DNA from: a virus
Direction: 5' to 3' (one strand)
Length of the DNA stretch: 64,000 nucleotides
IMG/VR virus record: IMGVR_UViG_3300037483_001670
Location: 64,001-128,000 of that record
Under the pieces are notes generated by a model. That model had not been told where the DNA came from. It saw only the letters and a list, made by a program, of their open reading frames with translations, and did no database searches. The translations under genes and the position numbers were made by a program. Below, one piece after another: positions 24,085-57,646 of this stretch. Position 1 is the stretch's first letter. Every line of letters starts with the position of its first letter.

Positions 24085-27000
24085 ATGACCGCTGCCCTCG
24101 CCACCGTTCCCGCCGAGCTCCACGGCCGCGCGCAGTTCGCACTGACGCAGATCGCCGAGGCGTGGCGCCGCGACACCCACGGGACGCAGTACGTCGAGGC
24201 CCTGAAGACGTTCCTCTTCGGCCTGCCGAGCCGCAACACACGCGCGCAATACAGCCGATCGATCAACGAGTTTTTCGAGTGGTACGAGCGCGAGAAGGGG
24301 CGCATTCCGGTCCCGGGCGAGGTCCGGCGAGAGGACGCGATCAAGTACGCCGATTGGCTCCGCACCCGCACCGTCGGGCTCGAGGAGCATCGTCTCAAGA
24401 AGGACACGACCCGCCGGCTCGATCTCGCGATCTACCGCCTCGTGAAAGCGTCGCCCGGCATCCGCGTTGACACGATCCGCGGCCACCTCCTCGCCAGCCC
24501 CGAGTTCACGGTGCTCGCCAAGATGCGGCCGAACGCGGCGGCCGCGTCGCTCGATCGCGTGCTCAAGATCGAAGAAGCCAGCCCCGACGGGCTCGATCGG
24601 CACCTCGGCTGCCTCGTCTCCATGCGCGTGCTCGAGCGCTCGCCGTCGATCGACGACATCCGAATGGGCCGCTTCATCGTGCCCGGGCTCGACATACCGA
24701 GCCGGGCGCAGATCGAGTTCCGCGTGCCCGAGATGACGTTCGCATACCGCGTCGCGGCCCACGATGAGCCGACGGGTGCAGGGCGCGCGAGCACGATCAA
24801 GATCCGCCTCACGGCGCTGAAAAGCTTCTGGAGCTACCTCATTCGGTCCGGCGAAAACGTGCGCGGGATGACCGATCCGCTCCTGAAATACAACATCTGG
24901 GAAGCCGGCACGGCGCAAGCCTCCAGGGAAGCGAAGGCGCAGCAAGCCGTGAGCCGGTCGCTGAAAACGCCGGACATGGAGATCTTCAATCGCCTGCTCG
25001 GCACGACGTACCGAACGAGCAGCGAAGATGGAATGGTGCTGCCGTCGCGCGATCTCGAGGACATCCGCGACCGCGCGATCCTGCTCTTTCTCCTCTACAT
25101 CGCGAGCCGGGCCGAGGAGCTCGTCACGATCCAGCGAACGGACGTCGTGTGGGGTCCCGAGCCGCTCGTGTCGATCCTCGGCAAGGGGCAAAAGAAGCGC
25201 CTCGTGCGCATCCCGGACCCGGCCTACCAAGCGGTGCTCGATCTCACCGCCAAGCTCGAGGAGCTAGCCGACCAGGCCGAGCGCTCGCGCCCGACCGAGA
25301 TCGCTCCCGCGCGGCGCCTACTCGCCCCCGACGCGCCTCTCTTTCCGCCGACGTCGCGCTGGGGATGCAACGCCGACATCAACCGAAGGAAAGAGCTGCC
25401 TCCGATCCTGCCGGCGCTCGATCGCACGGCCATCTACAAGATGCTGCACCGGCGCGCGGAAGAGACCGGTTTTGCGCGCGGATCGCACGAGTTCACGCGG
25501 TCGCACCCGCACGGCTTCCGGCATCTCGCCGCCCAGCTCGCGCGCGACGCCGGCACCCCCCTTCCCATCATCCAGGCCGTGCTCGGCCATTCCTCCCTTT
25601 CGACCACCGGCACCTACACCGAAGCGCGCGACCCGAACAGCGTGATCCTCTTCGGTTGGAGCCCCCCCCAGATCGTCGGCGGGTCGCCCGCTGCTCCACC
25701 CGGCGCGCCCATTCCGCCGCCCACGGCGCGCCCAATTGTCACTCCGGCACCTCCGACACCCGAGCGCCCGCGCCCCCCCGTGAAGGTCGTTCAGACGGTC
25801 GGAACGCCGGTTCCGGAGCCCATCCCCGCCGCGCGTCCGCCGGCTCCCCATGACTGGCCCGTCGCGCTGCCGCCGCCTCCTCCGCTGCCTCCGGATCCGG
25901 AGCCCATGCCCGACGTCGCGCCACCGCCGGAGGAGCGCCTGGTCGCCGTCGGAGCCACGCCTGAATCGCTCTTCGAGGAGGACCAGCGCCGCACCGCGGC
26001 CGAGCTCGATCGCATCTACGAGACCAACTGGGGCGAGGCCCGTGGCGGCGAGCAACTGCGCACCGGCAAGAAAGTCCCGGGCGACGAGGCCTACGACACG
26101 CTCATCCGCACGACGGCGGGGCGGCGCTCGGGGCTCGTGTGGTGGGCGGGCCCGACGGGACGCCTTCAGCTCAGCATGCCGGTGATGTCGCCCGGCCAGG
26201 TTATCGGCGAGGAGACCGTGTACGGCTCGGTTCGGGAGCGGCTCGGCGAGCTCTGGACGCATTGGATGGATCTCGACGACGACGCCCGCGGGCCGACGGC
26301 CGCGTTCGCGCTCCTCGCATGGGTGCGCGATGCGCTCGAGGTCTCCTACGACGTCGCGAGCGAAGTCGAGGTCCGCCAGGGCGAGTGGATCGGCTACCTT
26401 GCCCCCATCGAAGCGACCGCGCGCACCACCGGCAAACGGCGCATCTTTCGGGAGCACCGCGACGATCGCATTGCTGACTGGTTCGGAACGACGGCGTGGC
26501 AGCATCGGATCTCCCGAGGCCGAACGGCCACCGGGGGGCGCCCTCCGCGCGTCGTTGACACCGTGCTCGACGTCCCAGCGTGGTACCAGCTCGCCGATCC
26601 GCTCGCCGAGCTCAGCGACGCCGACCGACGCGATCTGTTCGACTGGATCCGCGTGCTCACCGGCCGGCCCCCCGTCGATCCGACCGTCCGCTACAAGGGC
26701 GCATCTCGCAAGGACATCGGAGGCCTCATCGGCCTCATGTGCACCTACGACGCGAATCGCGCCGAGCTCCGCCGCGCGCAGCACGCCGGCGAGCGCGAGG
26801 CCCTGCGCGATCTGAAGCACAGCGTCGAGCAGGATCGCGAGGCCGTGAACCTGGTCGTGCAGAGCATGCGCAACCTGAAGTTCGACATCCGCGCGGCCGT
26901 CGACGAACGCGTGCAAGGCACCCGTCAACGGATGGAATCCGAGTCCATCCGCAAGGCGGCCGGCGAAGAGGACGACGACGAGAGCTCACCGCGGGAGCGC

Positions 27001-27717
27001 CGTGAGGGCAACCGCAAGTTCTACCTGCGGGTCATCGGTGATCTGTTCGGGCCCGAGGCGGCCGCGGACGACATCCTCGCCCTCTTCGCGTACTGCAACC
27101 AGGAGGATGCCCCCCTTTCCGGCTGGCTGTATCCCCAACTTTTTCACATCCAGGGGAAAACGATCGTGCACTCGCCCGAGTTCGCGAAACAGTTCGCGCG
27201 CGAAACCGGCGGGGCGCACAGCGAGTGCGTGGCCCGCCGGATGGCCCGCGAGCTCTGGGAGCTCCGGCAGAAGCAGCGCGAGGCCGAGATCGCCGGCAGC
27301 ACCGCGCCGCGCCTCATCCAGCGCCCGGACGAGCTCCTCGAGTGGCTCCACGCGATGGCGTTCTTCAAGATCCCGTGTCCCCGCGAGCTCGAGACGGAGC
27401 TCCGCGAGCGCATCGCCGATCGCACGCCGGTGCCGGTCTACGAGGAATGGCAGCGCTGGCGCCAGCAGATCGAAGAGCGGTTCAGCAAGGAACGCTCGGC
27501 CGTGCGCGCCGCACGCGCGCAGGAGCAGACCCGCCACGTCGGCATCCTGGAAGAGTTTGGTGAGGCGGCCGAGAAGTACCGCGAGGCCGTCCAGCGCGAC
27601 GCCCGCGCCACCGAGTTCGAGCCGAATGCGCGCGCGAAGGAGTACCGCTACCAGCCCAACATGCGCCGGTTCGTGCCGAGCCCCGTCGCGCTCCTCTTCT
27701 GCGTCTACGCGAGATAA
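24085..27717 (+). CDS. giant tyrosine recombinase (1210 aa)
   Basis: Catalytic set R342 (ASRAEEL), K367, H476-x-x-R479 (PHGFRH), H502 (LGH), Y511; about 700 aa follow the catalytic Tyr. Confidence 0.9.
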   Translation: MTAALATVPAELHGRAQFALTQIAEAWRRDTHGTQYVEALKTFLFGLPSRNTRAQYSRSINEFFEWYEREKGRIPVPGEVRREDAIKYADWLRTRTVGLEEHRLKKDTTRRLDLAIYRLVKASPGIRVDTIRGHLLASPEFTVLAKMRPNAAAASLDRVLKIEEASPDGLDRHLGCLVSMRVLERSPSIDDIRMGRFIVPGLDIPSRAQIEFRVPEMTFAYRVAAHDEPTGAGRASTIKIRLTALKSFWSYLIRSGENVRGMTDPLLKYNIWEAGTAQASREAKAQQAVSRSLKTPDMEIFNRLLGTTYRTSSEDGMVLPSRDLEDIRDRAILLFLLYIASRAEELVTIQRTDVVWGPEPLVSILGKGQKKRLVRIPDPAYQAVLDLTAKLEELADQAERSRPTEIAPARRLLAPDAPLFPPTSRWGCNADINRRKELPPILPALDRTAIYKMLHRRAEETGFARGSHEFTRSHPHGFRHLAAQLARDAGTPLPIIQAVLGHSSLSTTGTYTEARDPNSVILFGWSPPQIVGGSPAAPPGAPIPPPTARPIVTPAPPTPERPRPPVKVVQTVGTPVPEPIPAARPPAPHDWPVALPPPPPLPPDPEPMPDVAPPPEERLVAVGATPESLFEEDQRRTAAELDRIYETNWGEARGGEQLRTGKKVPGDEAYDTLIRTTAGRRSGLVWWAGPTGRLQLSMPVMSPGQVIGEETVYGSVRERLGELWTHWMDLDDDARGPTAAFALLAWVRDALEVSYDVASEVEVRQGEWIGYLAPIEATARTTGKRRIFREHRDDRIADWFGTTAWQHRISRGRTATGGRPPRVVDTVLDVPAWYQLADPLAELSDADRRDLFDWIRVLTGRPPVDPTVRYKGASRKDIGGLIGLMCTYDANRAELRRAQHAGEREALRDLKHSVEQDREAVNLVVQSMRNLKFDIRAAVDERVQGTRQRMESESIRKAAGEEDDDESSPRERREGNRKFYLRVIGDLFGPEAAADDILALFAYCNQEDAPLSGWLYPQLFHIQGKTIVHSPEFAKQFARETGGAHSECVARRMARELWELRQKQREAEIAGSTAPRLIQRPDELLEWLHAMAFFKIPCPRELETELRERIADRTPVPVYEEWQRWRQQIEERFSKERSAVRAARAQEQTRHVGILEEFGEAAEKYREAVQRDARATEFEPNARAKEYRYQPNMRRFVPSPVALLFCVYAR

Positions 27718-30539: not shown

Positions 30540-31001
30540 TCAGGCTTCCTCGCGCTCTCGCGAAGCCACCGGCTCCGGCGGGTCCGAAAAGACGGGTCTC
30601 CGCCCGGTGGCCCACACAGGCTCCATGCTGATCTCGAAGCTCCACCCGGAATAGTGCGAGCTCACGTAGGCGACGACCTTAACGTGCTGGCTTTTCTCCA
30701 ACATCGCCTTCAGCTTGTCATCGAAACAGCCCATACCGCCCGCCTCGACCGACGCGCGAACCTCTTCCGATGCCCCCTCGATCGCCGCTGCGCGCGTCGT
30801 GAAAAGGTGCACGTATTCGTGGCGCGAGGTGTGCCCCATCGAAACGATGTTGCGCGTCGTCTTGAGCTCCCACACGTGGAGCGCCGACTCGTCAGGCTCG
30901 AACATCAAATCGCCCGCTTTGCGCTTCGCCACCAGCTGGGCATGCCGTTTGGCCGATTCCTCGGCCACCACCGCCAACGTCGCACCTCGCGCCGTCTTCA
31001 C
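30540..31001 (-). CDS. hypothetical protein
   Basis: GTG start overlapping the uvrD stop (GTGA). Confidence 0.55.
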   Translation of the reverse strand: MKTARGATLAVVAEESAKRHAQLVAKRKAGDLMFEPDESALHVWELKTTRNIVSMGHTSRHEYVHLFTTRAAAIEGASEEVRASVEAGGMGCFDDKLKAMLEKSQHVKVVAYVSSHYSGWSFEISMEPVWATGRRPVFSDPPEPVASREREEA

Positions 31002-34000
31002 GGCAGCGCCCGATCGTTTCGCACGTTGAGCCGCATCGCCGCTCGTTCCTTCTGCTCGTACTCGTACTGCGTGATCCACACCCGGTGCTGCTCCGGCAGA
31101 TCGTCGAGAAACACGCTCGGGTCGCTCGTGACGATCTGCCCGTACCGCAGGCGCCGGGCGCAGTACGTCAGCCAAAGCTGCCGGCGCGCGCGGGTGATGG
31201 CCACGTACGCGAGGCGCCGTTCCTCGTTCTTGTCGGGCGCGAGGACCGCGTTCTGGTGCGGGAACACACCCTTTTCCATGCCCACGATGAAAACGTAGTC
31301 GAACTCGAGCCCCTTCGCCGCGTGCACGGTCATCAGCACCATCTTCGCTTCCGCGTCGGCCGAGTCCTGATCGGTCAGCAGCGCCACCTCCTCCAGGTAC
31401 CCGAGCACCGTCGGGGTTTCCCCAACATTTCCCATGCGCTTTTCGTAGTACGCGATCGATTCCACAACTTGGTCACAGTTTTTCGCCCGCTCCTCCGCGT
31501 CCTCCATCGCGCGGGTCGATTTCGCACCGATCGCCTCCTCGAGCCACATGGCCTTGTACCGAGTCTCCTCGATGAGCATCGCGGCCATGTCGCTCGGCCG
31601 CATGTTCATCGTCCTGCCACAGAGCCCTGACATGATCTCCTTGAACTTCGTCAGCTGTTCACGTTCCTTCAGGCGGATGTCGGGCGACCACGCCGCGTGA
31701 TCGAGAGCTTCCCACATGGAGACCTTCTTACGCTTCGCAACTTCCCTCAGTTTCTTCACAGTGCCGGCGCCGATGCCGCGGACCGGTCGGTTGATGACGC
31801 GGATGAGGTCGACGTCGGAGTTCGGCTTGGTCGCGAGGCGCAGGTACGCGAGCACGTCGCGCACCTCCTTGCGCTCGTAGAACGAATGCCCGCCGACGAC
31901 CACGTACGGGATCGCCGCCAGGCGGAGCTCGTCCTCGATCGGCCGCGAGAGCGAATGCGACCGGTAGAGCACCGCCATGTCGCCCGGCGCCGCGCCGGCC
32001 TTGATCAGGAGCCTCGCCCGGTCCTTCACGAACGTGCCCTCTTCCCGATCGTCTGGGCACTCGATCACCGTCACCCGCGGCCCGTCCGGGTTCGCGGTCC
32101 AGAGCGACTTCGGTTCCCGGCCCTCGGCCACCTCGATGACGGCGAGGGCCGCGCCGACAATGTGCTTCGTCGATCGGTAGTTCTGCTCGAGTTTGACGAT
32201 CCTCGCGTCGGGGAAGTCCGTCTTGAACCCGAGGATGATCGACCGGTCGGCCCCGCGCCACGAATAAATACCCTGATCGTCGTCGCCAACCACGCACACG
32301 TTGCGCTTAGCTCCAAGGGCGCGCACCAGGCGGTACTGGGTCATGTTCGTATCCTGGAACTCGTCGACCATGACGTGCTCGAACCGGGCGCGGAGATCCA
32401 TCCCAATCTCGTCCTCGCGCTCGGCGAGCCGCATCATGTTAACGATGAGATCCTCGAAGTCGAACGCGTCGCCGTACTGAAGCCAGTCCTCGTACTGAAT
32501 CCAGATCTCCCGGAACCGCTCCTCGTCCTCGTCCATCGGGTTGATGTCGTGCGGCCTCAGCGCCTTCTGCTTGCAAAGGCCGATCTTTTCAAGTGTCTCG
32601 CCGAGATCGACCACCTTGCGGTCGATCTTCATGTCGTCGAGCACCTGCTTCAGCACCACCTCCTGCTCGTCCCGCGTGTAGATCTCGAAGGACGGTGTTC
32701 GCTGGACGTGCTGCGCGCGCTTCCGCAGCCCCGCCGCGCAGACCGAGTGGAACGTGCCCGACACGAGCCCCCGCGTCGCCCCGGGCGCCACCTTGTCGAT
32801 CCTGTGGCGCATCTCCGCCGCCGCCTTCTTCGTGAAGGTAACGAGCAGCATCGCGCCGGGCCGGACGCCCTGCTGCAAGAGGCGCACGGTGCGGGCGGTG
32901 AGCGTCTTGGTCTTGCCACTGTTGTGCGTTACCGTAAAATCGTCGAGCAGGTACCGACCGTCACCCTCGATCGAAAAGCCGCAATATCGTCCACGGCCCA
33001 CAGGCTCAACGGATTTGACGCCGGTACGCAGAACGTTCTTTTTCTGACGCCGCGGAGAGGCCATCTTCCTGCGGATTCGACATGGCACCGCCGACGTGTC
33101 CCCGGAAATGCTGACACGGTGGTACGTCCCACCGTGGCCGTTCTGGTCGTGCTTCTCGCACGCCCTCACGTAAGCGGCCAAGCCCACACTGCGAGACAAA
33201 AAAGCAACATCGTCCGCCAACTGCTTCGACTTATTGATCCAGTCGTACCCGTTGGCGTGCAAGTGCCCATCCGTGTCGAGCAGGCCGGCCAACACATGCA
33301 ACCGCACCGCTCGCGAGCCTTTCAGGTAGGGAGGCGGGACAAATCGGAGGTCGCTCCGCAACTTATACAGCCCCAGCTCACGCAATTCGTTGATGAGCTG
33401 ATTCGGATGCGCGTACCGACCCAAACGTGGTCCACGGTAACTGATGCCGTACGATCGCGACGACGGTCGAGGGTTTTCGTCCACCCTCACATGCAACCCA
33501 TACCTGCGCGCCTGCTTTCGCACCTCTCGATGAATCTCCACGTCTGGTTTCGACACGGCAACGCCAGCCCCCATCGAGCCATCGCCCAGAAGAACTCCTA
33601 AAAAGTACGGCTCCACCGTCACCTTGCCAGAGTCGCCGTGAAATACCGCAACCGGCGCCCTAAGAAGCTTGCTCTCCACTCTCCTCTTCTTGGACAACTT
33701 GAACCAATCGCGCACCTTCACATCGAACACACGGCCAGTCGTCGTGTCGACCAACGTCAGCACGTGCTGATCGTTCACCACGAACGCAGCCCCTTTTACC
33801 GGCGTTACCCGAAACATCGGAGCACGCCCCGCAACGGTACGCAGCACTTGCCTCTCAGTACCGTCCCAGCCCATTACACGATCGCCGACCATCACCGCGG
33901 CAGCGCGCTTGACGGAGCCATCCGACATCATGATGCCCTGATTGGGCTCGTGACACCCGGCGCCCGCAAAGATGAGCAGCGGCCCCGTCGTGTGCATGGC

Positions 34001-34036
34001 CGCCTCGCGCTGCGGCTCGTTCAGCTCGGCGAGCAT
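30998..34036 (-). CDS. uvrD: UvrD/PcrA/Rep helicase containing an intein
   Basis: LNEPQREA, AGAG|SGKT, TFTKKAA, VDEFQDTN, VGDDDQGIYSWRGA, LEQNYRST, MTVHAAKGLEF, EERRLAYVAITRAR. Confidence 0.96.
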   Translation of the reverse strand: MLAELNEPQREAAMHTTGPLLIFAGAGCHEPNQGIMMSDGSVKRAAAVMVGDRVMGWDGTERQVLRTVAGRAPMFRVTPVKGAAFVVNDQHVLTLVDTTTGRVFDVKVRDWFKLSKKRRVESKLLRAPVAVFHGDSGKVTVEPYFLGVLLGDGSMGAGVAVSKPDVEIHREVRKQARRYGLHVRVDENPRPSSRSYGISYRGPRLGRYAHPNQLINELRELGLYKLRSDLRFVPPPYLKGSRAVRLHVLAGLLDTDGHLHANGYDWINKSKQLADDVAFLSRSVGLAAYVRACEKHDQNGHGGTYHRVSISGDTSAVPCRIRRKMASPRRQKKNVLRTGVKSVEPVGRGRYCGFSIEGDGRYLLDDFTVTHNSGKTKTLTARTVRLLQQGVRPGAMLLVTFTKKAAAEMRHRIDKVAPGATRGLVSGTFHSVCAAGLRKRAQHVQRTPSFEIYTRDEQEVVLKQVLDDMKIDRKVVDLGETLEKIGLCKQKALRPHDINPMDEDEERFREIWIQYEDWLQYGDAFDFEDLIVNMMRLAEREDEIGMDLRARFEHVMVDEFQDTNMTQYRLVRALGAKRNVCVVGDDDQGIYSWRGADRSIILGFKTDFPDARIVKLEQNYRSTKHIVGAALAVIEVAEGREPKSLWTANPDGPRVTVIECPDDREEGTFVKDRARLLIKAGAAPGDMAVLYRSHSLSRPIEDELRLAAIPYVVVGGHSFYERKEVRDVLAYLRLATKPNSDVDLIRVINRPVRGIGAGTVKKLREVAKRKKVSMWEALDHAAWSPDIRLKEREQLTKFKEIMSGLCGRTMNMRPSDMAAMLIEETRYKAMWLEEAIGAKSTRAMEDAEERAKNCDQVVESIAYYEKRMGNVGETPTVLGYLEEVALLTDQDSADAEAKMVLMTVHAAKGLEFDYVFIVGMEKGVFPHQNAVLAPDKNEERRLAYVAITRARRQLWLTYCARRLRYGQIVTSDPSVFLDDLPEQHRVWITQYEYEQKERAAMRLNVRNDRALP
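32921..33955 (-). mobile_element. 345-aa intein with LAGLIDADG endonuclease, inserted in the UvrD Walker A
   Basis: Begins with Cys (CHEPNQG), block B VNDQH, FLGVLLGDG and LAGLLDTDG, ends THN with +1 Ser; removing it restores GAGSGKT. Confidence 0.95.
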
Positions 34037-34353
34037 CAGTGGACGCGGACGAAGCCGAGCAGGTGGTACCCGGTGACCTCCGGATCGCCATCGCCGAAAT
34101 TGACGACGATCTCGTAGCACTCGTCCGGCGGCATCCCGACGGAGAGATCGATCGCCCGCTCTTCGAGCTCGACGCTGTGCTTGCCCGCGTCGAATGGCAC
34201 CGGCGAGCCCTCGATGTCGGCCTCGAAGCCATCCAGCACCGTCTTCATGGCGTGGAGCGCCTCAGCCTTCGTCGCGAACACGCCCTCGAGCTCGAGCGTG
34301 ACCTCGTTGTCGTCGTCCTCATCTGCGTCCGTATCCGTCACCAGCACGTACAT
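34036..34353 (-). CDS. acidic hypothetical protein
   Basis: AAGGGAG RBS; TGATG overlap with uvrD. Confidence 0.6.
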   Translation of the reverse strand: MYVLVTDTDADEDDDNEVTLELEGVFATKAEALHAMKTVLDGFEADIEGSPVPFDAGKHSVELEERAIDLSVGMPPDECYEIVVNFGDGDPEVTGYHLLGFVRVH

Positions 34354-35934: not shown

Positions 35935-35987
35935 ACGGTACTCGCCCCGGCGCTGCGCCGTCAAGAACGTACTAGTACGATCATAAC
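35935..35987 (-). promoter_or_regulatory. sigma70-like promoter with the same upstream operator as at 6443-6465
   Basis: Minus strand GATCGTACTAGTACGTTC-TTGACG-18-TACCGT; 23 nt identical to the 6443-6465 block. Confidence 0.75.
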
Positions 35988-36895
35988 TATTCTAGGACAT
36001 TGACGGTCACGGCGTCGCGTGCCTGCGAAAGCGGCACCGCATGCCCCGGATCGGTGATGGCCCAGAAGGGGCGTTCGTGTGTGTCCCGCCGCACGTGCCC
36101 GACGTTGTTCAAGTGCACGTCGGCGAGCAGCAGTCCCCGCTCGAGATAAAAGTCGAGCGCTTCGCCCACTTCGGGACCGCCCGGCTCGTGCTCCATCAAT
36201 TCCGCAACGATCGCGCATGCCCGGACGAGCGCCGCCGCCCGTTGCGCGCCCTTCAAAGTCCCGAACGGCCCGGCGCGCTGACCCTCCCAATGCTGGCGAC
36301 CCATCCCCTCGCCGATGTCGTCGAGCTCGACCTTGTCCCGCGCCCAATCCTCGTAGCGCTTCATGCTCGCCAACGTGGCCGCCTGGTCGGCCGCGCGCGT
36401 CACAATGTCCTTGACGATGCCGGCACATGTCTGAAACACCCGCAGGTGCCAGACGAACTCCTGCATGGCACGCGGATCCTCGCCTGGGAGATTCTTAAGC
36501 CACACGAGCCGCCCGACGTCGTACGCCTCCTCGCGCCAAAGCACGAAGACGGGCCGACCTCGGTACTCTGCCGGCAGCCGGTAGATCGCAGCGTAGTGCA
36601 CGATGCCGTCGGGGAAGGCGCGCATCTTCATCGCCGACGCCACGAAGTGAGCCTCGAGCGGATCGCTCGTCACCTTCAGCACGAGCCCCTTGCGGCTGGT
36701 CGGCAGGACGCAGCCGTAATGACCGCACCCGTACTCCTCCACGCTCCGCCGCTTTCCACTGCTTCCCACTTTTTCCGTCGGCATGAGCTCCTTGCCGACG
36801 CGTTCCTGCATCGCGTCCCACGATTCCGCGAGGCTGCGGTTCACCCATGCCGGGTTCGGCTCGAACTCCTCGAGCTCGGCGCGACCGGCAGTCAT
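35987..36895 (-). CDS. protein-kinase-like protein
   Basis: YGCGHYGCV Gly loop, VLKVT, DVHLNNVG catalytic-loop-like motif, ITDPG. Confidence 0.6.
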   Translation of the reverse strand: MTAGRAELEEFEPNPAWVNRSLAESWDAMQERVGKELMPTEKVGSSGKRRSVEEYGCGHYGCVLPTSRKGLVLKVTSDPLEAHFVASAMKMRAFPDGIVHYAAIYRLPAEYRGRPVFVLWREEAYDVGRLVWLKNLPGEDPRAMQEFVWHLRVFQTCAGIVKDIVTRAADQAATLASMKRYEDWARDKVELDDIGEGMGRQHWEGQRAGPFGTLKGAQRAAALVRACAIVAELMEHEPGGPEVGEALDFYLERGLLLADVHLNNVGHVRRDTHERPFWAITDPGHAVPLSQARDAVTVNVLE

Positions 36896-37374
36896 AGGTG
36901 CACGAGCCACCGCGTGAGCAGGTAGGCACCGAGGCCGGTCATGCCCACTGCCAGCGCCCGACCGACGTTCGAGATCGCCGCCGTGCTCACGGCCGGCACC
37001 TCGACGTCCCACGGGTAGACGTCGGGGGGCGGCGGCTCGCATTCGGTCGCCATGAACGTCATCACGTTCGGGTTGCAGGTCGTCGGCGCCGGCTGGCCGC
37101 TCATGTCGTAGACGGTGACCCCTCGAATCGGAGGGTCGACGTTGACGCGCTTCCCGCCTCGGTTGGTCCACGTGTGCCATTCGACCCGCGCAAGCGCCGG
37201 CACGCCGGCAAACACATTCGGCACGGTCGCCCCCATCGGATACGCGGACGGATCATGCACGATCGCCGATGCCCACTTGCCCATCTCGGGCGGCACCGGG
37301 CGCGTCCATATTTTGGCTCCAGGAGGCGGGGGCGGGTTGAGTGCCACGACCCGTAAGACTACCCCGAAAACCAC
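36892..37374 (-). CDS. Pro-rich hypothetical protein with C-terminal hydrophobic helix
   Basis: ATGA-type coupling with the kinase-like gene; TM-like C-terminus. Confidence 0.45.
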   Translation of the reverse strand: MVFGVVLRVVALNPPPPPGAKIWTRPVPPEMGKWASAIVHDPSAYPMGATVPNVFAGVPALARVEWHTWTNRGGKRVNVDPPIRGVTVYDMSGQPAPTTCNPNVMTFMATECEPPPPDVYPWDVEVPAVSTAAISNVGRALAVGMTGLGAYLLTRWLVHL

Positions 37375-37428
37375 GTGCCGAAAAGCCGCCTTTGCGACGC
37401 GGGATCGGGCGTGCCAGGTTCATCCAGG

Positions 37429-37614
37429 ATGAACGCGATCCGACTCGAGAAGAAACGACGGGTGCGCGGCGCACGCTTGGTGCGCCGCCTCCTGCGCCGG
37501 GGACACGACAATGCTGGCCGTTGGTTTTGGCTTGGTCGGGTCGCCTTGAATCCGTGGCTTACGATACCCAACGAGGCCTACGCGTACTTGTGGGCGTACC
37601 TGCGGATCCGCTGA
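37429..37614 (+). CDS. cassette mini-ORF (61 aa)
   Basis: Starts 11 nt after a motif; its stop begins the next motif. Confidence 0.55.
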   Translation: MNAIRLEKKRRVRGARLVRRLLRRGHDNAGRWFWLGRVALNPWLTIPNEAYAYLWAYLRIR

Positions 37615-37662
37615 TTTTTCGCCTTTGTGAATCGCCGGAGCGCGTGCCACGTCTGACGGACC

Positions 37663-37881
37663 ATGGCGAAGTCGACGCGAGCGTACCCCCTTCCGAGAGT
37701 AGAGAACGACCCGCGCTTCAATTTGGGGCTGCTCCTTGCGGTCGCCGAAGTTCTCGAAGCGAAGGGATTTCCCAAGCCAGACGCTTACGACTTCCCCGAT
37801 CTCTCGGTCGCGCTCTTTCGTTTCCTCTACCGAGATGAAGCCGCGGAAGCCGCGACGAAGGTTCCTGGCGAAGGGCGCTGA
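37663..37881 (+). CDS. cassette mini-ORF (72 aa)
   Basis: Bounded by motifs on both sides. Confidence 0.6.
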   Translation: MAKSTRAYPLPRVENDPRFNLGLLLAVAEVLEAKGFPKPDAYDFPDLSVALFRFLYRDEAAEAATKVPGEGR

Positions 37882-37926
37882 TTTTTCGCCCTTGCGGGTC
37901 GAGCTCGCGCGTTTCACGATCGCCAG

Positions 37927-38115
37927 GTGCCTAGCTGCGAATGCGAGGATTTTCGTTCGGAACGACCCGCGGGGCAAAAGTTTGCCGTATGTGGAGATCC
38001 AGCTGAATGGCGGCGCGACGACAACGGGCCAGGCCCGCCCAACATCTGCACCAAGCACGCGGAGACGCTTCGGGCCGCCGGGCTTGCCGTGGTCAAACCC
38101 AACCCGTTGAACTGA
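37927..38115 (+). CDS. cassette mini-ORF (62 aa, Cys-containing)
   Basis: Bounded by motifs on both sides. Confidence 0.55.
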   Translation: MPSCECEDFRSERPAGQKFAVCGDPAEWRRDDNGPGPPNICTKHAETLRAAGLAVVKPNPLN

Positions 38116-38160
38116 GTTTTCGCCTTTGCGGAGCGCCTGCGGGCGTGCCAAGCCTTCGAC

Positions 38161-38337
38161 GTGACCTCCGACGAAGCCGATCGATACGTGCGGCGTGAGC
38201 TCGGAGAATGGCTCTGCAAGTGGCTCAGCGATGAGCATGAGGGGGCCGAACCGCGCTTTTCTCCAACCGGCGATCCCGACGAGCTCGCAGCCATCAATGA
38301 TGCCTGGGGCCGGCTGCGCCGCTATCTCTTGGGCTAA
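38161..38337 (+). CDS. cassette mini-ORF (58 aa)
   Basis: GTG 9 nt after a motif; TAA begins the next motif. Confidence 0.55.
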   Translation: MTSDEADRYVRRELGEWLCKWLSDEHEGAEPRFSPTGDPDELAAINDAWGRLRRYLLG

Positions 38338-38382
38338 TTTTCGCCTTTGCGGCTCGCGAGCTCGCGTGTCACCGTCCGAAGC

Positions 38383-38655
38383 ATGCCCGCCGTGATCCTC
38401 GGACTGCCCCCCGACAAGTGCGACCACATCTACCCGCGGACCCGGGATGGCCGTTGCCAGGGCTGCGGTTCGGTGAGCTGCGCAGCGCCGAAGGATCGAA
38501 GCCTGGCTGGTCTCGGCGGCCCGCGCTGCGGAAAGCCGGCGACCATGCGGCGCGACGGTCAACCGCAGTGCGATGAGTGCTGGGCCGACCGGCCTCACCT
38601 CGCTTCGTGCGTGCACGGTGATTGCTGGTGTAAGCCCGGCAGCGACGGGACCTAG
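38383..38655 (+). CDS. cassette mini-ORF (90 aa, Cys-rich)
   Basis: Bounded by motifs on both sides. Confidence 0.55.
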   Translation: MPAVILGLPPDKCDHIYPRTRDGRCQGCGSVSCAAPKDRSLAGLGGPRCGKPATMRRDGQPQCDECWADRPHLASCVHGDCWCKPGSDGT

Positions 38656-38692
38656 TTTTTAGTCGTTGCGGCGCATCTGACCGCATATCACG

Positions 38693-38905
38693 ATGACCGG
38701 AATGACCACTCGCGATGATGTCGACTTCGTGAACGCGCTAGGAGCTCGGTGCGGAGACCTGTCGAAGCTCGAACGTGACGCACCGGCGCCGATCACCATC
38801 GGCGAGCTGCGCCGGCTTTTGACCATCCTAGCCAGCCAGATCCAAATGAACATGACGATCGTCGACGAACTCAAACGCAGGTGCGAGGCATTGGGCATCG
38901 GCTAA
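38693..38905 (+). CDS. cassette mini-ORF (70 aa)
   Basis: Bounded by motifs on both sides. Confidence 0.6.
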   Translation: MTGMTTRDDVDFVNALGARCGDLSKLERDAPAPITIGELRRLLTILASQIQMNMTIVDELKRRCEALGIG

Positions 38906-38950
38906 TTGCCGGTTTGCGGAGCGCTCGAGCGCGTGTCAGCGTCGATCCCC

Positions 38951-39220
38951 ATGAAGGACTGGGGCCCGAGGGGAGCTCTCATCGCCCCGCCGGGCCCAGC
39001 GTCCTCGGCGGCGCGAAAGGGTCTACCGCGTTTTTCGGCCCGCGATTGGGACGGATCGTACGGCCATGGGGCGCGGCGGGCCCACTACGCCGTTGGCGTG
39101 GTTCGGTGCCCTACTTGCGGAGCTCCCCGCGGCGCGCTTTGCCAAGGTGCGCTTGGGCCACATTTGGGAACCCACATCGAGCGGCGCAAGGCATACAGCC
39201 AAGCGAAGCGCGCGAAGTGA
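38951..39220 (+). CDS. cassette mini-ORF (89 aa, CPTC..C Zn finger)
   Basis: Bounded by motifs on both sides. Confidence 0.55.
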   Translation: MKDWGPRGALIAPPGPASSAARKGLPRFSARDWDGSYGHGARRAHYAVGVVRCPTCGAPRGALCQGALGPHLGTHIERRKAYSQAKRAK

Positions 39221-39264
39221 CTTTCGCCCTTGTGAGCCGGCTCGAGCCGTATCAACCTGGATCG

Positions 39265-39447
39265 GTGGCAAAACACCGTACCAGTGCGCTCGACGGTTCT
39301 CCCGAATGGCGAGCACTCTTCGCCGGCCTCGTGGCCAAAGCCGAGATCGAAGAGCGCGCAGTCGAAGCTTTCGCCGAGCACTGGGGACTCAAGTACGACG
39401 CCGACCTCCGCGAGCTCGTCCGCTTTGCCCGCCAAGGCCCACACTGA
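39265..39447 (+). CDS. cassette mini-ORF (60 aa)
   Basis: Bounded by motifs on both sides. Confidence 0.55.
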   Translation: MAKHRTSALDGSPEWRALFAGLVAKAEIEERAVEAFAEHWGLKYDADLRELVRFARQGPH

Positions 39448-39623
39448 TTTTCGTCGTTGCGGCGCGCGCCCAGGCGTACCAGGATCAAAGCGCCGTGGCC
39501 TGGAGACGCCGGAAGGCCGGCCGCGGAAGTTCCGATGAGCTAAGACGCGTCTTCCGGCGCCGAGCTCGGCGGAGCGATTCGCCCTTGTGAATCGCTCCGC
39601 CGCGTGCCACGTCTTGACGCGAC

Positions 39624-39785
39624 ATGCGGTGGAAGCGTCGACGCCGGCTGAAGCTCCAACGTCGCACCCTCGACCGCTTCGAAAGAACGCGTCCCCTTAC
39701 CCGCAAGCTGGTCGCCCTTGGGCTCTTGGATCCGATCGTCGCCGAGCTTCACTACTACGCCGCGGCTCAACGCCATCGCGCCTAG
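39624..39785 (+). CDS. cassette mini-ORF (53 aa, Arg-rich)
   Basis: ATG 13 nt after a motif; TAG just before the next motif. Confidence 0.5.
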   Translation: MRWKRRRRLKLQRRTLDRFERTRPLTRKLVALGLLDPIVAELHYYAAAQRHRA

Positions 39786-40057
39786 GTGGCTTTTTCGACT
39801 TGTAAGCCGGCTCGAGGCGTATCAACCTGGATCGAGGTCGCCAGCTCGGAGCGCGTGCGATGAAGCAGCGAAAGCTGCGGAGACCGCGACGGGTGATGGA
39901 ATCGCCTAGCTGGCGGCCCATTTTCGCCTTTGCGACACGACCTCGAGCGGTTCATCCTCTTGAACCATGCCACGTCGTTCGTGCCCGAAGTGCGGGTGGT
40001 GGGTCGATTCGGTTTCGGCCTTGGCCCGAAGCCTGCTTACCCGGCAGTCTGGCGCTC

Positions 40058-40363
40058 ATGGAGCGCACCATTCTGCACGTCCGCATCGAGCTGGCGATGT
40101 TCAACGCCGCCACACGGCGAGCCGTAGAGCACGCGTCGACCTGCGCGAGCTCCCTCATTCTGGTCGCCGAGCTCGCCAAGGACAGCATCGCCGATCTGTT
40201 CTTCGATGCCGAGCCGGACGAGCTGCGAGCTCGAGCGACACGTCTCCGGAGTGCTGTGCTGCACGCGTCGAATCTTGGGGCCGAGCTCCAGGCCGTTGCG
40301 GGCAGCTTGGAGCAGCTCGCCCTGCTCCGCGAGCTGGCCGAGCCGGAGACGGACGAAGACTAG
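40058..40363 (+). CDS. hypothetical helical protein
   Basis: Protein-like ORF after the last motif copy. Confidence 0.5.
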   Translation: MERTILHVRIELAMFNAATRRAVEHASTCASSLILVAELAKDSIADLFFDAEPDELRARATRLRSAVLHASNLGAELQAVAGSLEQLALLRELAEPETDED

Positions 40364-40729
40364 GCGTTGAGCCGCCGCCGTGCTGCGCGCCCGTCGGCGC
40401 GTCCGAGTTCGTAACAAATAGCTCCGACCACCAGCAGTCCGATACCCACCGCTACGGGTTCGGAAATACCGAAGATGCCGGCTTCAACCGTGCCATCCGG
40501 CCGTGCAGCAACAGCAAACGACGACCGCTGAATGGGTCGCCGGGACCGGCGAACGAGGGACTGCGACATTGTTTCTCCTGTCTGTCGCGGGACCTTTGCG
40601 TGGCTCGGGCGCCAACCCTTGCCACGTCCCGCGTCCCGGCGGCCTTTTTAGCGGCCGTCGAGCTTGTCCAGGATCCATTTAGGGTGAACGCATGTCAAGC
40701 CGATCGCAGCATGGTAAACTGCGCTTCGG

Positions 40730-40984
40730 ATGGCTCCGCGGATGCCTGTCGACGTCAACCAGCTAGCGCACTCAATCGTCGCGAGAGCGACGGGGCAACG
40801 CGAGCGTCTGGCGTCCCTTCCTGGTGGCAAAAAAGTGAAGAACAAGGCTGCGGTCGAACTCGGGCGCCGAGGCGGCCTGAAGGGCGGCAAGGCGCGCGCG
40901 GACAAGCTTTCTGCGAAGCGTCGTCGTGCCATCGCCAAGAAGGCGGCGGCTGCTCGCTGGGCAAAGAAACAAGCTTCGGGCTAG
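40730..40984 (+). CDS. small basic protein typically found beside IS1-like transposases
   Basis: DVNQLAHSIVARATG...AAVELGRRGGLKGGKARA.KLS..RR.AIAKKAAAARW. Confidence 0.75.
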   Translation: MAPRMPVDVNQLAHSIVARATGQRERLASLPGGKKVKNKAAVELGRRGGLKGGKARADKLSAKRRRAIAKKAAAARWAKKQASG

Positions 40985-40997
40985 CCCTCAAATCGAC

Positions 40998-41252
40998 ATG
41001 GTTGTCTGCGAGAACTGCGGTCGAGAAAACCACGATCTCGGAGGCGATCTCACCGGCTGGGCATGCGGTTATTGCGGCCTTGGGCCGCTGCGTAGAATCC
41101 CTGCCGCTCCTGCGCCTCAGCCGCAACAAAACGATCCTGGGAAGGTACTCGTTGGAGGTGCACTCGGAGCGGCCGTTGGTGGCGCGCTCGGTGGACCGCC
41201 GGGCGCACTTGTCGGTGCGTTTTTGGGAGCAATCTTCGGGTCAAGACAATGA
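40998..41252 (+). CDS. Zn-ribbon plus glycine-zipper passenger protein
   Basis: CENC..CGYC then GGALGAAVGGALGGPPGALVGAFLG. Confidence 0.6.
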   Translation: MVVCENCGRENHDLGGDLTGWACGYCGLGPLRRIPAAPAPQPQQNDPGKVLVGGALGAAVGGALGGPPGALVGAFLGAIFGSRQ

Positions 41253-41575
41253 GCGATCTTTGGCTTTGGCTGAAGGATCACCCTCATGGCTGGCAACCAG
41301 TTCTCATCGTGGTCGGCGTCATGGCTAACGGAATTTGGGGCGGAAAGCGCTGGCCGAAGACGGGTCAGTGGATGCATTTGTTTGCGTGCGCTTGCAGTTT
41401 TAGTGGCGCAGCTCGCATTTGGTTGGATGCCGCAAGGAAGATGGACGATCCCTCTTCGTGGGGGCAGGTCCTCGGTGCCCTCGCGATGATCTTGATCACT
41501 GCTGAAAGCGCTTGGAAGGTCATGTCCGATCTTACGACTCGAGATCCAAAGCCTCCGCCCCTTGAGAAGCCGTGA
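41249..41575 (+). CDS. small membrane passenger protein
   Basis: Hydrophobic helices; ATGA overlap. Confidence 0.55.
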   Translation: MSDLWLWLKDHPHGWQPVLIVVGVMANGIWGGKRWPKTGQWMHLFACACSFSGAARIWLDAARKMDDPSSWGQVLGALAMILITAESAWKVMSDLTTRDPKPPPLEKP

Positions 41576-41594
41576 CAATTAATGTCCTAGCCGC

Positions 41595-41625
41595 GCTTGA
41601 GCATGCTTCACCGCTCAAGCATACT
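41595..41625 (+). promoter_or_regulatory. transposase promoter with overlapping inverted repeat
   Basis: TTGAGC-17-CATACT; GCTTGAGC/GCTCAAGC inverted repeat; ATG 7 nt downstream. Confidence 0.6.
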
Positions 41626-41632
41626 GACCAGT

Positions 41633-42485
41633 ATGAACCGACTGGACAGCAAACGACGAAAGCAAGTCGTCGCTGCGCTGGTCGAGGGTTGCAGCATTCG
41701 CGCGACCTGCCGGATGACGGGCGTGGCAAAGGGCACGGTTCTGAGGCTGCTTACAGATCTCGGCACGGTGTGCGCGAACTACCTGGATCAGCGGCTACGC
41801 AATCTCACGTGCAAGAAGATCCAGTGCGACGAAATCTGGAGCTTCTGCTACGCGAAGGACAAGAACGTCCCGGACTCGATGAAGGACAAGCCTGGCGTCG
41901 GTTCGATCTGGACGGTGGACGGCCATCGACGCCGACACGAAGTTGATCGTCGCGTATCACGTGGGTACGCGCGACGCGACGTGTGCGAACCACTTCATGA
42001 AGGACGTTGCGAAGCGGCTGGCGCATCGGGTTCAGCTCACCACCGACGGGCTGCACCTGTACATGTGGGCCGTCGGCCTCGCGTTCGGTGGAGAAATCGA
42101 CTACGCGATGCTGGTCAAGCTCTACGGCCCGTCGCGGGGCGAAGGCACGTACAGCCCGCCAGAGTGCATCGGCACCAAGATTCGGGTGGTTCGTGGCGAA
42201 CCGGACTACGAGCACGTCTCGACGAGCTACGTCGAGCGACAGAACCTCACGATGCGCATGCAGATGCGCAGGTTCACGCGATTGACCAACGCGTTTTCCA
42301 AGAAGGTCGAGAACACGAAGCACGCGCTGGCACTGCATTTTCTCCACTACAACTTCGTTCGGATTCACCAAACGTTGCGGGTGACGCCAGCAATGGCCGC
42401 CGGGCTCACGGACCGGCTCTGGGACGTCGATGACATCGTTCCGCTGCTCGAACAGGCCGAAGCGACGGCCGTCAAGTCAAACTGA
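41633..42485 (+). pseudogene. IS1-family DDE transposase with a +1 frameshift near 41915
   Basis: N-terminal HTH (EGCSIRATCRMTGV), QCDEIWSF, then TGG ACG G TGG ACG shift, then [25 protein letters not shown]. Confidence 0.85.
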
Positions 42486-42663
42486 CCCACTACCGAAGTG
42501 CGGTCGCCTCGAACCAAGCCACATCTGCGATTCGCACTGCCCCGAAGGGGGCTATTGCAACTTCACCGAGATGACCCGGACCGATTGGAGCGACCTGATC
42601 GATCGGACTCGCACGCAGAACCACGACATTGCTTCGCAGCGAGCCAAGAACCTGGGCAAGGCC

Positions 42664-42702
42664 TGAATTTGCGCCCTTTCGGGGCGCGAACTCGCGTCTT
42701 TC
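42664..42702 (+). repeat. degenerate 13th cassette motif with an internal hairpin
   Basis: TGA-ATTTGCGCCC-TTTCGG-N12-CGTCTTTC; GCGCCC/GGGCGC stem. Confidence 0.4.
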
Positions 42703-42783
42703 GGCGTGATGTGACAGGATGGTTCGCAGCCGAGTTGACCTTGGTCGTTCCAAACGCGGGCCACAGCGGCAGCGAACGTCCAC

Positions 42784-42820
42784 CGATAGGCCGCCTTTCG
42801 GGGCGGCCTATCGTGTTTTC
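42784..42820 (+). terminator. intrinsic terminator
   Basis: 12-bp stem CGATAGGCCGCC/GGCGGCCTATCG followed by TGTTTT. Confidence 0.75.
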
Positions 42821-42825
42821 GTTGC

Positions 42826-42838
42826 GTTACGTTTGTAC
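42826..42838 (+). promoter_or_regulatory. dyad box variant
   Basis: GTTACGTTTGTAC upstream of the gene at 42860. Confidence 0.5.
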
Positions 42839-42859
42839 GCGTGACACCGTTGCAATGGA

Positions 42860-56410: not shown

Positions 56411-57646
56411 ATGCCCTACGGCGCCACCCTGGCAGAAATGCAGCGTCAGCCGTGGGGAGATCTCTCCGTTCTCGATGAAGTGGGCCGCACGCATTGCGGT
56501 CTGAAGCTTTGGCTCTGCACCTGCTCCTGCGGCCACAAGGCTTTGCGCACGACAACTCGGCTCCGTCGAGCCGTCAAAGATGGACAGACATCGATGTGTC
56601 TCGAGTGTCTACGAGAGCTTCGCAGCGGCCTCCACATCGAGTATGTCGATCGCCGCAGACAGTTCTTTCGCCAGATTTGGGACAAGTTTCACACGCTCTA
56701 CCTCGACGTCCACCTGCGCAAAATGGAGCTGGACATCTACGAAGAAAGCGAGCTGCCGTACCAAGATCACGATGTCCCCAACACAGACGTGCCGATCGGC
56801 TACCACGTGTACGAGCCTCCCGATCGCTCTCCTCGCACGCCCGCCTTCGAGATGACGCTCGATGAGCTCGGAGCGCACTTCCAGGTAAGCAGGGAGCGCG
56901 CCCGGCAAATGGAACGCAAAGCGCTCCGCATGTTGCGCCATCCGAGTCGAGCCAAATTTTTGCGCCAGTTCGTCTACGATTCGGAGTTCTTTTCGCCACC
57001 ACTGCAAGCGCAACCACGCAAGTCGCCGCAAATGGCAACAGCTGCCACTCCTCGACTCCACTGGACCGACCAGCACGACCAAGCTCTTCGACGCGCGCAG
57101 GACGCCGCTTACCACGGCGAAACCCTGCACGAACAACAACAGCGTTCCGAGATCGAGCAAGAGGCCAAGATCGAAAAACGACACCGCCAACAGGAGCAAC
57201 GAGCACTGCAAAGCATCGAGCGGGAACGTGTCCGCCTCGAAAAAGAACGCTCGCAACTCGACCGAGGGCTCGCAACCGTATCCGTCATGTTCTCGTGCTC
57301 TTGCTCTTCGCAATCCGAGCTACAATTCACCTGTGCCGAGCTCTTGACTCTCGAACGTCAGCTCGATCCAAGGCTCGTTCTCAGCGCTAAAACCATGTGC
57401 GAGACGCTGCACACCTGGTCCCTTGTCCGACGCCCCGACTTGGACCACTCCCGCTTCGGAGCGACCGGCTTATGCGGCTATTGTTTCCGCTCCGGCGTAA
57501 TCGCCCTATCCCACGACGACATTCGCATCGGGCTCGAGCGCGCGAGAGCGCAGGATCTCCTACCGCCCGACACCGAGGCGCAGCTGCGTCTCCTGCTCGA
57601 CGATTATTGCCTGCGACACGGAGTACCGACCCTGGAGATCGCATGA
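56411..57646 (+). CDS. Zn-motif / sigma70 region-4 fusion protein
   Basis: WLCTCSCG at the N-terminus; [33 protein letters not shown] resembles RpoD region 4.2. Confidence 0.75.

Follow-up and report, generated by a model that had tools for sequence, protein, structure and literature searches.

Bases 64001 to 128000 of the 182,423-bp IMG/VR virus record IMGVR_UViG_3300037483_001670 (referred to as G000), a stretch of 64,000 nucleotides that we call the window, carry a tandem array of very small genes in which copies of one module of approximately 45 nt stand between unrelated open reading frames (ORFs). We consider it likely that this module is a sigma70-type promoter and that the mini-genes behind it are leaderless. 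The most conserved columns of the module coincide with the contact positions of a sigma70-family holoenzyme at canonical spacing, and the start codons sit where transcription is expected to start, so that each mRNA would have its start codon at the very 5' end.

Layout of the array and anatomy of its module

The window has a G+C content of 64% and a tRNA array on one strand. A strict motif pattern allowing up to 3 mismatches gave 8 matches in the window, all on the plus strand, against an expectation of 0.01 from shuffled sequences. A looser regular expression and direct reading together give 12 same-strand copies at 37384-39958, with TTG anchors at 37392, 37625, 37892, 38126, 38347, 38666, 38914, 39230, 39457, 39585, 39800, and 39930. 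This bears out an earlier, sequence-only reading of the window, which had described 12 copies of one bipartite motif, each at the head of a mini-gene cassette. The degenerate copy that it placed beyond an insertion sequence (IS) is real (42669-42705; E value of 0.01 with a profile built from the copies), and a position weight matrix (PWM) of the core alone found a 14th core copy at 42822-42850 that it had overlooked. Regular expression, profile, and PWM scans of the whole 182-kb record found no copy of comparable quality elsewhere; the genome-wide PWM scan that the reading had proposed thus leaves the class almost confined to the array locus, with one extra core copy. The array is bounded upstream by divergent genes (35987-37374, opposite strand) and downstream by a strong terminator, and its copies all lie on one strand. 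A 398-aa ORF on the opposite strand (37420-38616) was considered and set aside; its codon score of -0.02 and G+C content at third codon positions (GC3) of 0.67 are not better than those of the mini-ORFs.

The features are listed below, with the modules as predicted promoters and the mini-genes numbered by unit.

37384-37420, plus: promoter module 1, first of the array; no T-run; TTGCGA-N17-CAGGTT, with ATG 8 nt on; core PWM score of 26.4 bits
37429-37614, plus: c1, 61-aa basic ORFan; frame 0 best; no Pfam or PHROGs match
37617-37653, plus: promoter module 2, subtype B; TTGTGA-N17-CACGTC
37663-37881, plus: c2, 72-aa ORFan; Atlas look-alikes are hypothetical proteins only
37884-37920, plus: promoter module 3, subtype C
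37927-38115, plus: c3, 62-aa Cys-containing ORFan; GTG start
38118-38154, plus: promoter module 4; pattern match
38161-38337, plus: c4, 58-aa ORFan; GTG start
38339-38375, plus: promoter module 5, subtype A; spacer CGCGAGCTCGCG; -10 CACCGT; 32.3 bits
38383-38655, plus: c5, 90-aa Cys-rich ORFan; codon score and Atlas look-up
38658-38694, plus: promoter module 6, in weakened form (TTTAGTCG, CATAT); a relative, seen as a contig with a loose end before 38703, has the canonical CGTAT in its orthologous unit
38702-38905, plus: c6, 67-aa helical protein by its model (confidence of 72); purifying selection indicated
38906-38942, plus: promoter module 7, subtype A; spacer GCGCTCGAGCGC; 33.3 bits
38951-39220, plus: c7, 89 aa, putative DNA-binding phage zinc finger; PF24623 Phage_zn_bind_8
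39222-39258, plus: promoter module 8, subtype G
39265-39447, plus: c8, 60-aa three-helix protein by its model; GTG start; no fold match
39449-39485, plus: promoter module 9; pattern match
39495-39590, plus: c9, 31-aa ORF that ends at the TGA within the following -35 box; codon score of -0.44; probably a decayed remnant
39577-39613, plus: promoter module 10, subtype B; T-run lost
39624-39785, plus: c10, 53-aa basic ORFan; codon score
39792-39828, plus: promoter module 11, a 34/36 duplicate of module 8 (-36 to -1); start lost; empty unit
39922-39958, plus: promoter module 12, subtype C
39967-39986, plus: c12, 5' piece; joined to 42495-42666 it gives a 63-aa zinc-ribbon-like ORF
39987-42494, unstranded: IS1-family element within c12, not part of the array; weak DDE_Tnp_IS1 match
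42495-42666, plus: c12, 3' piece; TGA directly before module 13
42669-42705, plus: module 13, decayed; -10 is TTCGGC; 15.1 bits; spacer resembles a unit of the related contig L010
42784-42823, plus: strong predicted intrinsic terminator, 13-bp stem followed by TGTTTTCGTT; closes the array
42814-42850, plus: 14th core copy, TTGCGT-N12-CGTGA-CACCGT; 14.9 bits, near shuffle noise

Thirty-eight copies of the module, 13 from the window and 25 from relatives described below, were aligned without gaps and counted by column. T-35 and T-34 are each present in 38/38 copies and G-33 in 30/38; T-15 is kept in 35/38, G-14 in 27/38, C-12 in 36/38, and A-11 in 34/38, and position -7 is a pyrimidine in all 38 (T in 27, C in the remainder). 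The spacer from TTGYGR to CANNNT measures exactly 17 nt in 38/38 of these ungapped copies. A TTG at -35, a 17-nt spacer, an extended -10, and A-11/T-7 are the contacts and spacing of sigma70-family promoters. In this register, the CGTRYCA half of the motif as first described covers the last spacer bases and the TG motif and reaches two bases into the -10 hexamer. The module runs from about -49 to -7, and its upstream block TTTTCGCC (the TTTT/CGCC block, -44 to -37) is conserved in 34 to 37 of the 38 copies. The predicted parts would therefore be a -35 element TTGYGR, a 17-nt spacer, an extended -10 (T-15, G/A-14), and a -10 hexamer CANNNT, preceded by a T-run/CGCC block at -44 to -37 that could be an UP-like element or a regulator site.

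The spacer also holds a dyad, CGC-N6-GCG, whose three pairs are kept in 36, 34, and 27 of the 38 copies. Palindromes centered on CTCGAG or GAGCTC had been reported for many spacers; the spacers of subtype A do carry perfect 12-bp palindromes, but many copies are without an inner palindrome, and it is CGC-N6-GCG that is conserved. The inner pairs show no significant covariation (15 of 500 shuffles score as high, and the pairs are unpaired in 25 and 15 of the 38 copies), and RNAalifold found no consensus structure for the module copies. Because of this lack of both covariation and fold, we read the dyad as a possible protein-binding site or DNA feature, rather than RNA, and as a candidate operator.

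Other registers were tried and rejected. CGTGCCA is the reverse complement of TGGCACG, as a sigma54 register would have it, but no TTGC lies at N4 on that strand, and CGTGCCA is found in only 6/12 window copies, most others having CGTGTCA. A Caulobacter-type register, TTGACGS-N10-14-GCTANAWC, would need a 14-nt spacer.

In most copies the stop codon of the preceding ORF ends 0 to 3 nt ahead of TTTCGCC, which agrees with the earlier description of stop codons merging into the motif. The next start codon, always ATG or GTG, lies 10 to 14 nt past the final CA in nearly all units (the 9 to 13 nt first given was essentially right), that is, 6 to 10 nt past CANNNT, with 6 nt the commonest distance and one outlier at 12 nt. 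This leaves no room for a Shine-Dalgarno (SD) sequence; the gap between hexamer and start holds none, and the ORFs measure 31 to 90 aa, the size range and general lack of SD sequences both being as first read. SD-led genes do exist in the same virus group, for example in the related contigs L011 (GGAGG 7 nt before the ATG, after a 70-nt leader) and L014 (AAGGA ahead of a coupled gene), and their occurrence makes the absence from the array meaningful. Among long ORFs of G000, an SD-like word precedes 30% compared to 12% of internal controls, and TANNNT at leaderless distance precedes 7/153 compared to 0/153. Each mini-gene is thus probably expressed as a leaderless mRNA from its own promoter: transcription would start 6 to 10 nt past the hexamer, on the A or G of ATG or GTG, and the mRNA would be translated without an SD sequence.

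Within the array there are just two weak terminator-like hairpins, and the strong one comes only at 42784-42823, right after module 13. Hairpins ahead of the T-runs are not consistent (mean of -8.0 kcal/mol compared to -5.8 in controls). The T-tail of the strong terminator doubles as the T-run of the 14th core copy, making 42784-42850 the sole true terminator-promoter composite; a GTTAC...GTAC word overlaps the spacer of that copy. As units are not separated by terminators, a transcript would extend to 42784-42823 whichever promoter it started from, with efficient translation limited to its 5'-terminal ORF. Since only that ORF would be translatable without a ribosome-binding site, each gene would need its own promoter, which offers a rationale for one promoter per gene in that the ribosome could use only the 5'-terminal start codon.

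The array also bears marks of decay. The 34/36 identity noted earlier between 39229-39264 and 39799-39834 is exact and makes unit 11 a promoter-only copy of unit 8, with its start codon gone (GTG to AGG). The earlier statement that a new ORF usually follows a copy needs correction for unit 11 and for unit 9, whose 31-aa ORF scores as noncoding. The promoter-only unit 11, the probable remnant in unit 9, and the decayed unit 13 are signs of turnover inside the window. In three other samples and studies (X3, X4, and X5) a joint of 39986 to 42495 with 9 shared letters shows the IS to be missing; judging from this joint, the IS1-family element with its passenger ORFs (39987-42494) is a recent insertion in c12.

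Relatives, gene exchange, and cargo

We scanned metagenome contigs of the Joint Genome Institute (JGI) with the strict pattern, which returned ten loci. Seven of these (L009, L010, L011, L012, L014, L016, and L018) contain 1 to 9 further copies in the same stop/module/start layout, and since L010 and L016 overlap perfectly into one sequence of 2208 nt (M), they represent six distinct relatives' sequences. L011 belongs to the virus group of G000, and the two have a transglutaminase-like protein in common; blastn of the relatives against G000 found nothing in common outside the modules. Across 42 cross-contig module pairs, chosen at an identity of at least 80%, identity is 0.75 to 0.91 at -44 to -5, 0.40 at -54 to -45, and 0.21 to 0.33 in both flanks, with random sequence at 0.27; the proteins behind the modules are unrelated between contigs. 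A comparison across relatives, as the sequence-only reading had suggested, finds different genes behind the same modules in 7 contigs and, at the junctions bridged, the same order in close strains. Its cassette idea fits in the weaker form of exchangeable units with junctions at the motif, as identity drops at the module edges.

Subtypes of the module were defined as single-linkage clusters of the -35 to -7 cores, and several contigs have them in common. The order B to C recurs in L009, in L012, and in the window (units 2-3, and again units 10-12 with the empty unit between them), and the order A to E is found in both M and L009. The pattern resembles a promoter scaffold that is conserved while its genes are replaced. 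The same gene can also stand in different settings. For example, gene Y directly follows gene X with an SD sequence in L014, and in M it lies 850 nt further and has a leaderless module of its own; between L014 and M, identity is 95% for X and only 71.5% for Y. Another ORF is leaderless behind a subtype A module in L018 and in L011 stands behind a subtype F module, a 70-nt leader, and GGAGG. The recurrence of the same ~45 nt every 130 to 320 bp makes these repeats probable homology for recombination, through which units could be replaced, duplicated, or deleted. Exchange of units in the manner of the promoter early stem-loop (PeSL) elements discussed below, with homologous recombination between promoter copies as the likely route, is plausible as a secondary property of the module and about as likely as not.

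Run X2, from the record's own sediment sample, contains at least 3 further module-bearing contigs at depths of ~36, ~24, and ~6, one of which (4.5 kb) has a c6 homologue; several relatives therefore co-occur with the virus. Candidate X2 joints at 37657 to 39578, 38131 to 39578, and 38372 to 38914, with sides of 33 to 40 nt and 85% likeness, were rejected as rearrangements and read as motif copies of other relatives. In L009, the same strong hairpin (CCCCGCCGCCGCGGGG plus a T-run) stands before two modules (L009:300-330 and L009:2876-2905), a direct repeat that brackets most of the L009 array.

The cargo ORFs are real; they are small accessory ORFans, probably with roles in early host takeover or antidefense. 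For 10/11 ORFs, a codon model trained on long genes ranks frame 0 first or places it no more than about 0.1 away from its antisense shadow frame. c6 has one homologue (P0001) among 5.8 billion proteins, at 91% amino acid identity; against a relative's contig, 11 of 70 nt differ (~84% nucleotide identity) with one amino acid change, and this ratio of ~10 synonymous to 1 nonsynonymous indicates purifying selection. In Pfam and PHROGs searches of the window cargo, only c7 reaches a curated cutoff (Pfam PF24623 Phage_zn_bind_8; E value of 2.3e-5, 24.5 bits, cutoff of 24), and there was no PHROGs match. Structure prediction, which had been proposed for the mini-proteins, gave part of an answer: AlphaFold models of c6 and c8 are small helical bundles (predicted local distance difference test score of ~72), with no fold match at an E value of 0.001 or below. 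Atlas look-ups of c2 and c5 gave scores of 0.86 or less and are leads only. The clusters nearest c2 (37663-37881) are ~70-aa hypothetical proteins, mostly of Actinomycetota (score of 0.86, template modeling score of 0.78), a weak lead to the host or gene source.

One cassette of a relative has a recognizable product. In M (L010:785-1015, minus strand) it is a 76-aa protein like Tad2, the Thoeris antidefense 2 protein (PF11195; E value of 1.6e-25), behind a subtype F module, with its start 21 nt past the hexamer; this fits an antidefense role of such islands. Tad2 was not found in G000.

Searches of other collections gave little. The array had no blastn match in a phage collection, two full-motif patterns found nothing in IMG/VR, and a shorter upstream-half pattern found there only unrelated single matches in low-GC phages. 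GTDB genomes gave 15 single chance matches to the motif and zero arrays, and so no pointer to the host. A look-up of sequencing runs that contain the stretch listed no RNA run. Searches of viral contigs by way of a 397-aa neighbor, a UvrD helicase, and a giant recombinase found no close relatives, and no T4-like genes were seen in the array neighborhood. The 397-aa neighbor (35987-37180) overlaps a 160-aa ORF (36892-37374), both on the minus strand in different frames and both with high GC3; the overlap may come from a frameshift, programmed or otherwise, or from a miscalled start, and neither has a Pfam or PHROGs match. The UvrD-type helicase (30998-34120, minus strand) is split by an intein (Hint and LAGLIDADG domains, residues ~60-340).

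Reader of the module and competing explanations

In G000, sigma70 region 2, a T7-type RNA polymerase, and the two large subunits of a multisubunit polymerase had no match; positive controls matched for all these polymerase and sigma searches except the T7 family. The sole sigma-like match in the record is an ORF with Sigma70_r4 only (56411-57646, plus strand, ~411 aa, 34.8 bits). With no viral RNA polymerase or complete sigma factor in the record, host RNA polymerase is the default reader, and the likely one is the host enzyme with a primary sigma70-family sigma factor. Of the earlier proposal that each mini-gene has its own alternative- or phage-sigma promoter and a near-leaderless mRNA, the promoter and the mRNA are thus the best-supported part; the sigma factor is not, as the architecture is primary-sigma-like and neither region 2 nor a polymerase is encoded. 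The region 4-only protein could compete for -35 boxes or the beta flap, switching off -35-dependent promoters (compare P23-45 gp39; PMC3950348).

More tentatively, and less likely than not, the promoter modules might be the units of a lineage-wide gene exchange system. An ordered scaffold of promoter subtypes would let coinfecting relatives swap leaderless antidefense ORFans by double crossover or mini-circles, with later switch-off through the spacer dyad or the region 4 protein at the -35.

Several observations weigh against a sigma70-type promoter with exchangeable leaderless genes. The -35 agrees with TTGACA at just 3 to 4 of 6 positions and the -10 with TATAAT at 2 to 3 of 6, with C rather than T at -12, and a scan with the E. 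coli promoter consensus called 0 copies. TTTTCGCC, C-27 G-26, and G-18 C-17 G-16 are conserved like the sigma contacts yet are not sigma contacts, which leaves room for an additional factor or another reader. The near-confinement of the class to one locus of the 182-kb genome is odd for a plain host promoter and points to a temporal class more than to a promoter of a general host type. The mini-ORFs have low codon scores (0 to 0.26, compared to 0.39 in core genes). Support for recombination is comparative, and close strains are collinear where contigs bridge, from c8 to c9 (X3) and from c10 through unit 13 (X4), the IS being the sole difference; as these strains are near-identical to the window and only the bridged junctions are covered, this is a weak test of rearrangement.

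The competitor that survives best, itself unlikely, is a promoter read by an alternative host sigma factor of the extracytoplasmic function (ECF) type, with CGT as its -10, or one needing a virus activator at TTTTCGCC; the promoter would then be middle class, as in sigma appropriation of the T4 MotA/AsiA type, and would give a 7- to 10-nt leader. CGT is the hallmark of ECF -10 elements. C-17, G-16, and T-15 are as conserved as the sigma70 positions, and the near-invariance of TTTTCGCC, the restriction of the class to one locus, and the region 4-only protein all fit. However, an ECF register was rejected: CGT is present and an AAC-type -35 is absent, TTTTCGCC ending 19 nt and TTGYGR 12 nt before CGT instead of 16 to 17. 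Such a reader would also leave A-11, T-7, and the 6- to 10-nt start distance unexplained, and no sigma region 2 is encoded.

We regard as improbable an array of stoperator-like operators at gene ends, with a viral repressor silencing or punctuating a single long operon that starts from unit 1. A single operon would leave SD-less ORFs, ~55 nt past the previous stop, without a translation route, and operators need neither a fixed 6- to 10-nt start distance nor TTG, TG, A-11, and T-7 at sigma70 spacing. The asymmetry and uniform orientation of the repeats, their overlap with stop codons, the conserved dyad, and the perfect palindromes of subtype A do speak for operators; many copies have no inner palindrome, though, and a regulator site inside the module is compatible with a sigma70-type promoter.

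The sequence-only reading had also offered the motif as a site-specific recombination site, integron-like without attC, which now appears very improbable. Unrelated one-gene units between repeats of one direction, whose genes differ among relatives, are what such a system would produce, and recombinases do occur nearby: a 1210-aa Xer/Cre-like tyrosine recombinase at 24085-27717, 10 kb upstream, is the nearest to the array and a candidate enzyme, and in two relatives (L018:1198-1857, plus strand, and L011:8692-9555, minus strand; 51% identical) the gene right after a motif-headed one encodes a serine resolvase (Resolvase plus HTH_7). But no resolvase was found in G000, so that it is not a constant partner of the module, and the module has no paired recombinase arms around a central spacer, just a 3-bp dyad. 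What is conserved in the module are promoter positions, set at a fixed distance from the start codon. In L011, modules stand ahead of ordinary genes that belong to no array; where L014 and M part (X|Y versus X|Z), the break-point falls between two genes and no module is present there; and strains from three other samples keep their order at bridged junctions. Least probable of all is an RNA-level element at which a long polycistronic transcript would be processed or would load ribosomes: the module does fill the whole intergenic space before each start and some spacers are GC-rich and self-complementary, but only the CGC/GCG pairs are invariant, and fold, covariation, and a consistent hairpin before the T-run are all missing.

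Comparison with known systems

If the module is a sigma70-type promoter, it defines a testable promoter class and an accessory-gene island for an uncultured, very large bacterial virus lineage that is almost unannotated. It would also serve as a search handle for candidate early or antidefense genes and offer a very compact expression signal, without a ribosome-binding site, for high-GC hosts.

In the host-takeover module of SPO1, the host polymerase reads several strong promoters that lie close together in a cluster of many small early genes. The array is likewise a cluster of small genes with several closely spaced promoters, whereas the SPO1 units have SD sequences, terminators, and several genes per promoter; to our knowledge, no exchangeable-module pattern has been described for SPO1. 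Integron cassettes are promoterless, end in the imperfect palindrome attC, and are recombined by an adjacent IntI. They too form one-direction arrays of unrelated single-gene units parted by a repeat, but the repeat here is a predicted promoter at the gene 5' end, with no attC-like structure and no adjacent IntI-type integrase. The stoperators and start-associated sequences of mycobacteriophage Clusters A and K are 13-nt genome-wide sites, serving as repressor sites or lying 3 to 8 nt upstream of starts. These resemble the module as short, asymmetric repeats in one orientation at gene boundaries, overlapping stop or start regions, and differ from it in that they are without bipartite -35/-10 geometry.

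Middle and late transcripts of Thermus phage phiYS40, as summarized in PMC3594737, are leaderless and made by host RNA polymerase, and gp39 of P23-45 brings about a switch to extended -10 promoters (PMC3950348). As in these phages, the array would use host RNA polymerase from promoters too near the start codon for a leader. Their promoters, however, head ordinary operons genome-wide, whereas here one promoter and one ORFan alternate in a tandem array with a conserved -35 TTG.

The closest parallel is with the PeSL elements of T4-type phages, in which sigma70-like early promoters and terminator stem-loops lie among the ORFans of hyperplastic regions, genes being swapped as the repeated copies recombine (Arbiol et al. 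2010, PMC2839356; Comeau et al. 2014, PMC4122927). Both systems place a repeated sigma70-like promoter before small ORFans in a variable region, and both have promoter copies as islands of identity between unrelated sequence. Related T4-type phages differ by ORF insertion, deletion, or replacement, and the different ORFs behind the modules of the relatives are consistent with such exchange. The array differs in that most units are without a stem-loop terminator, 42784-42850 being the only composite, in that its genes are without SD sequences and predicted to be leaderless, and in its high-GC DNA and a virus that is apparently not a T4-like myovirus. The array would thus extend the PeSL idea of promoters as break-points for gene shuffling beyond the T4-type phages, in a leaderless and terminator-free form.

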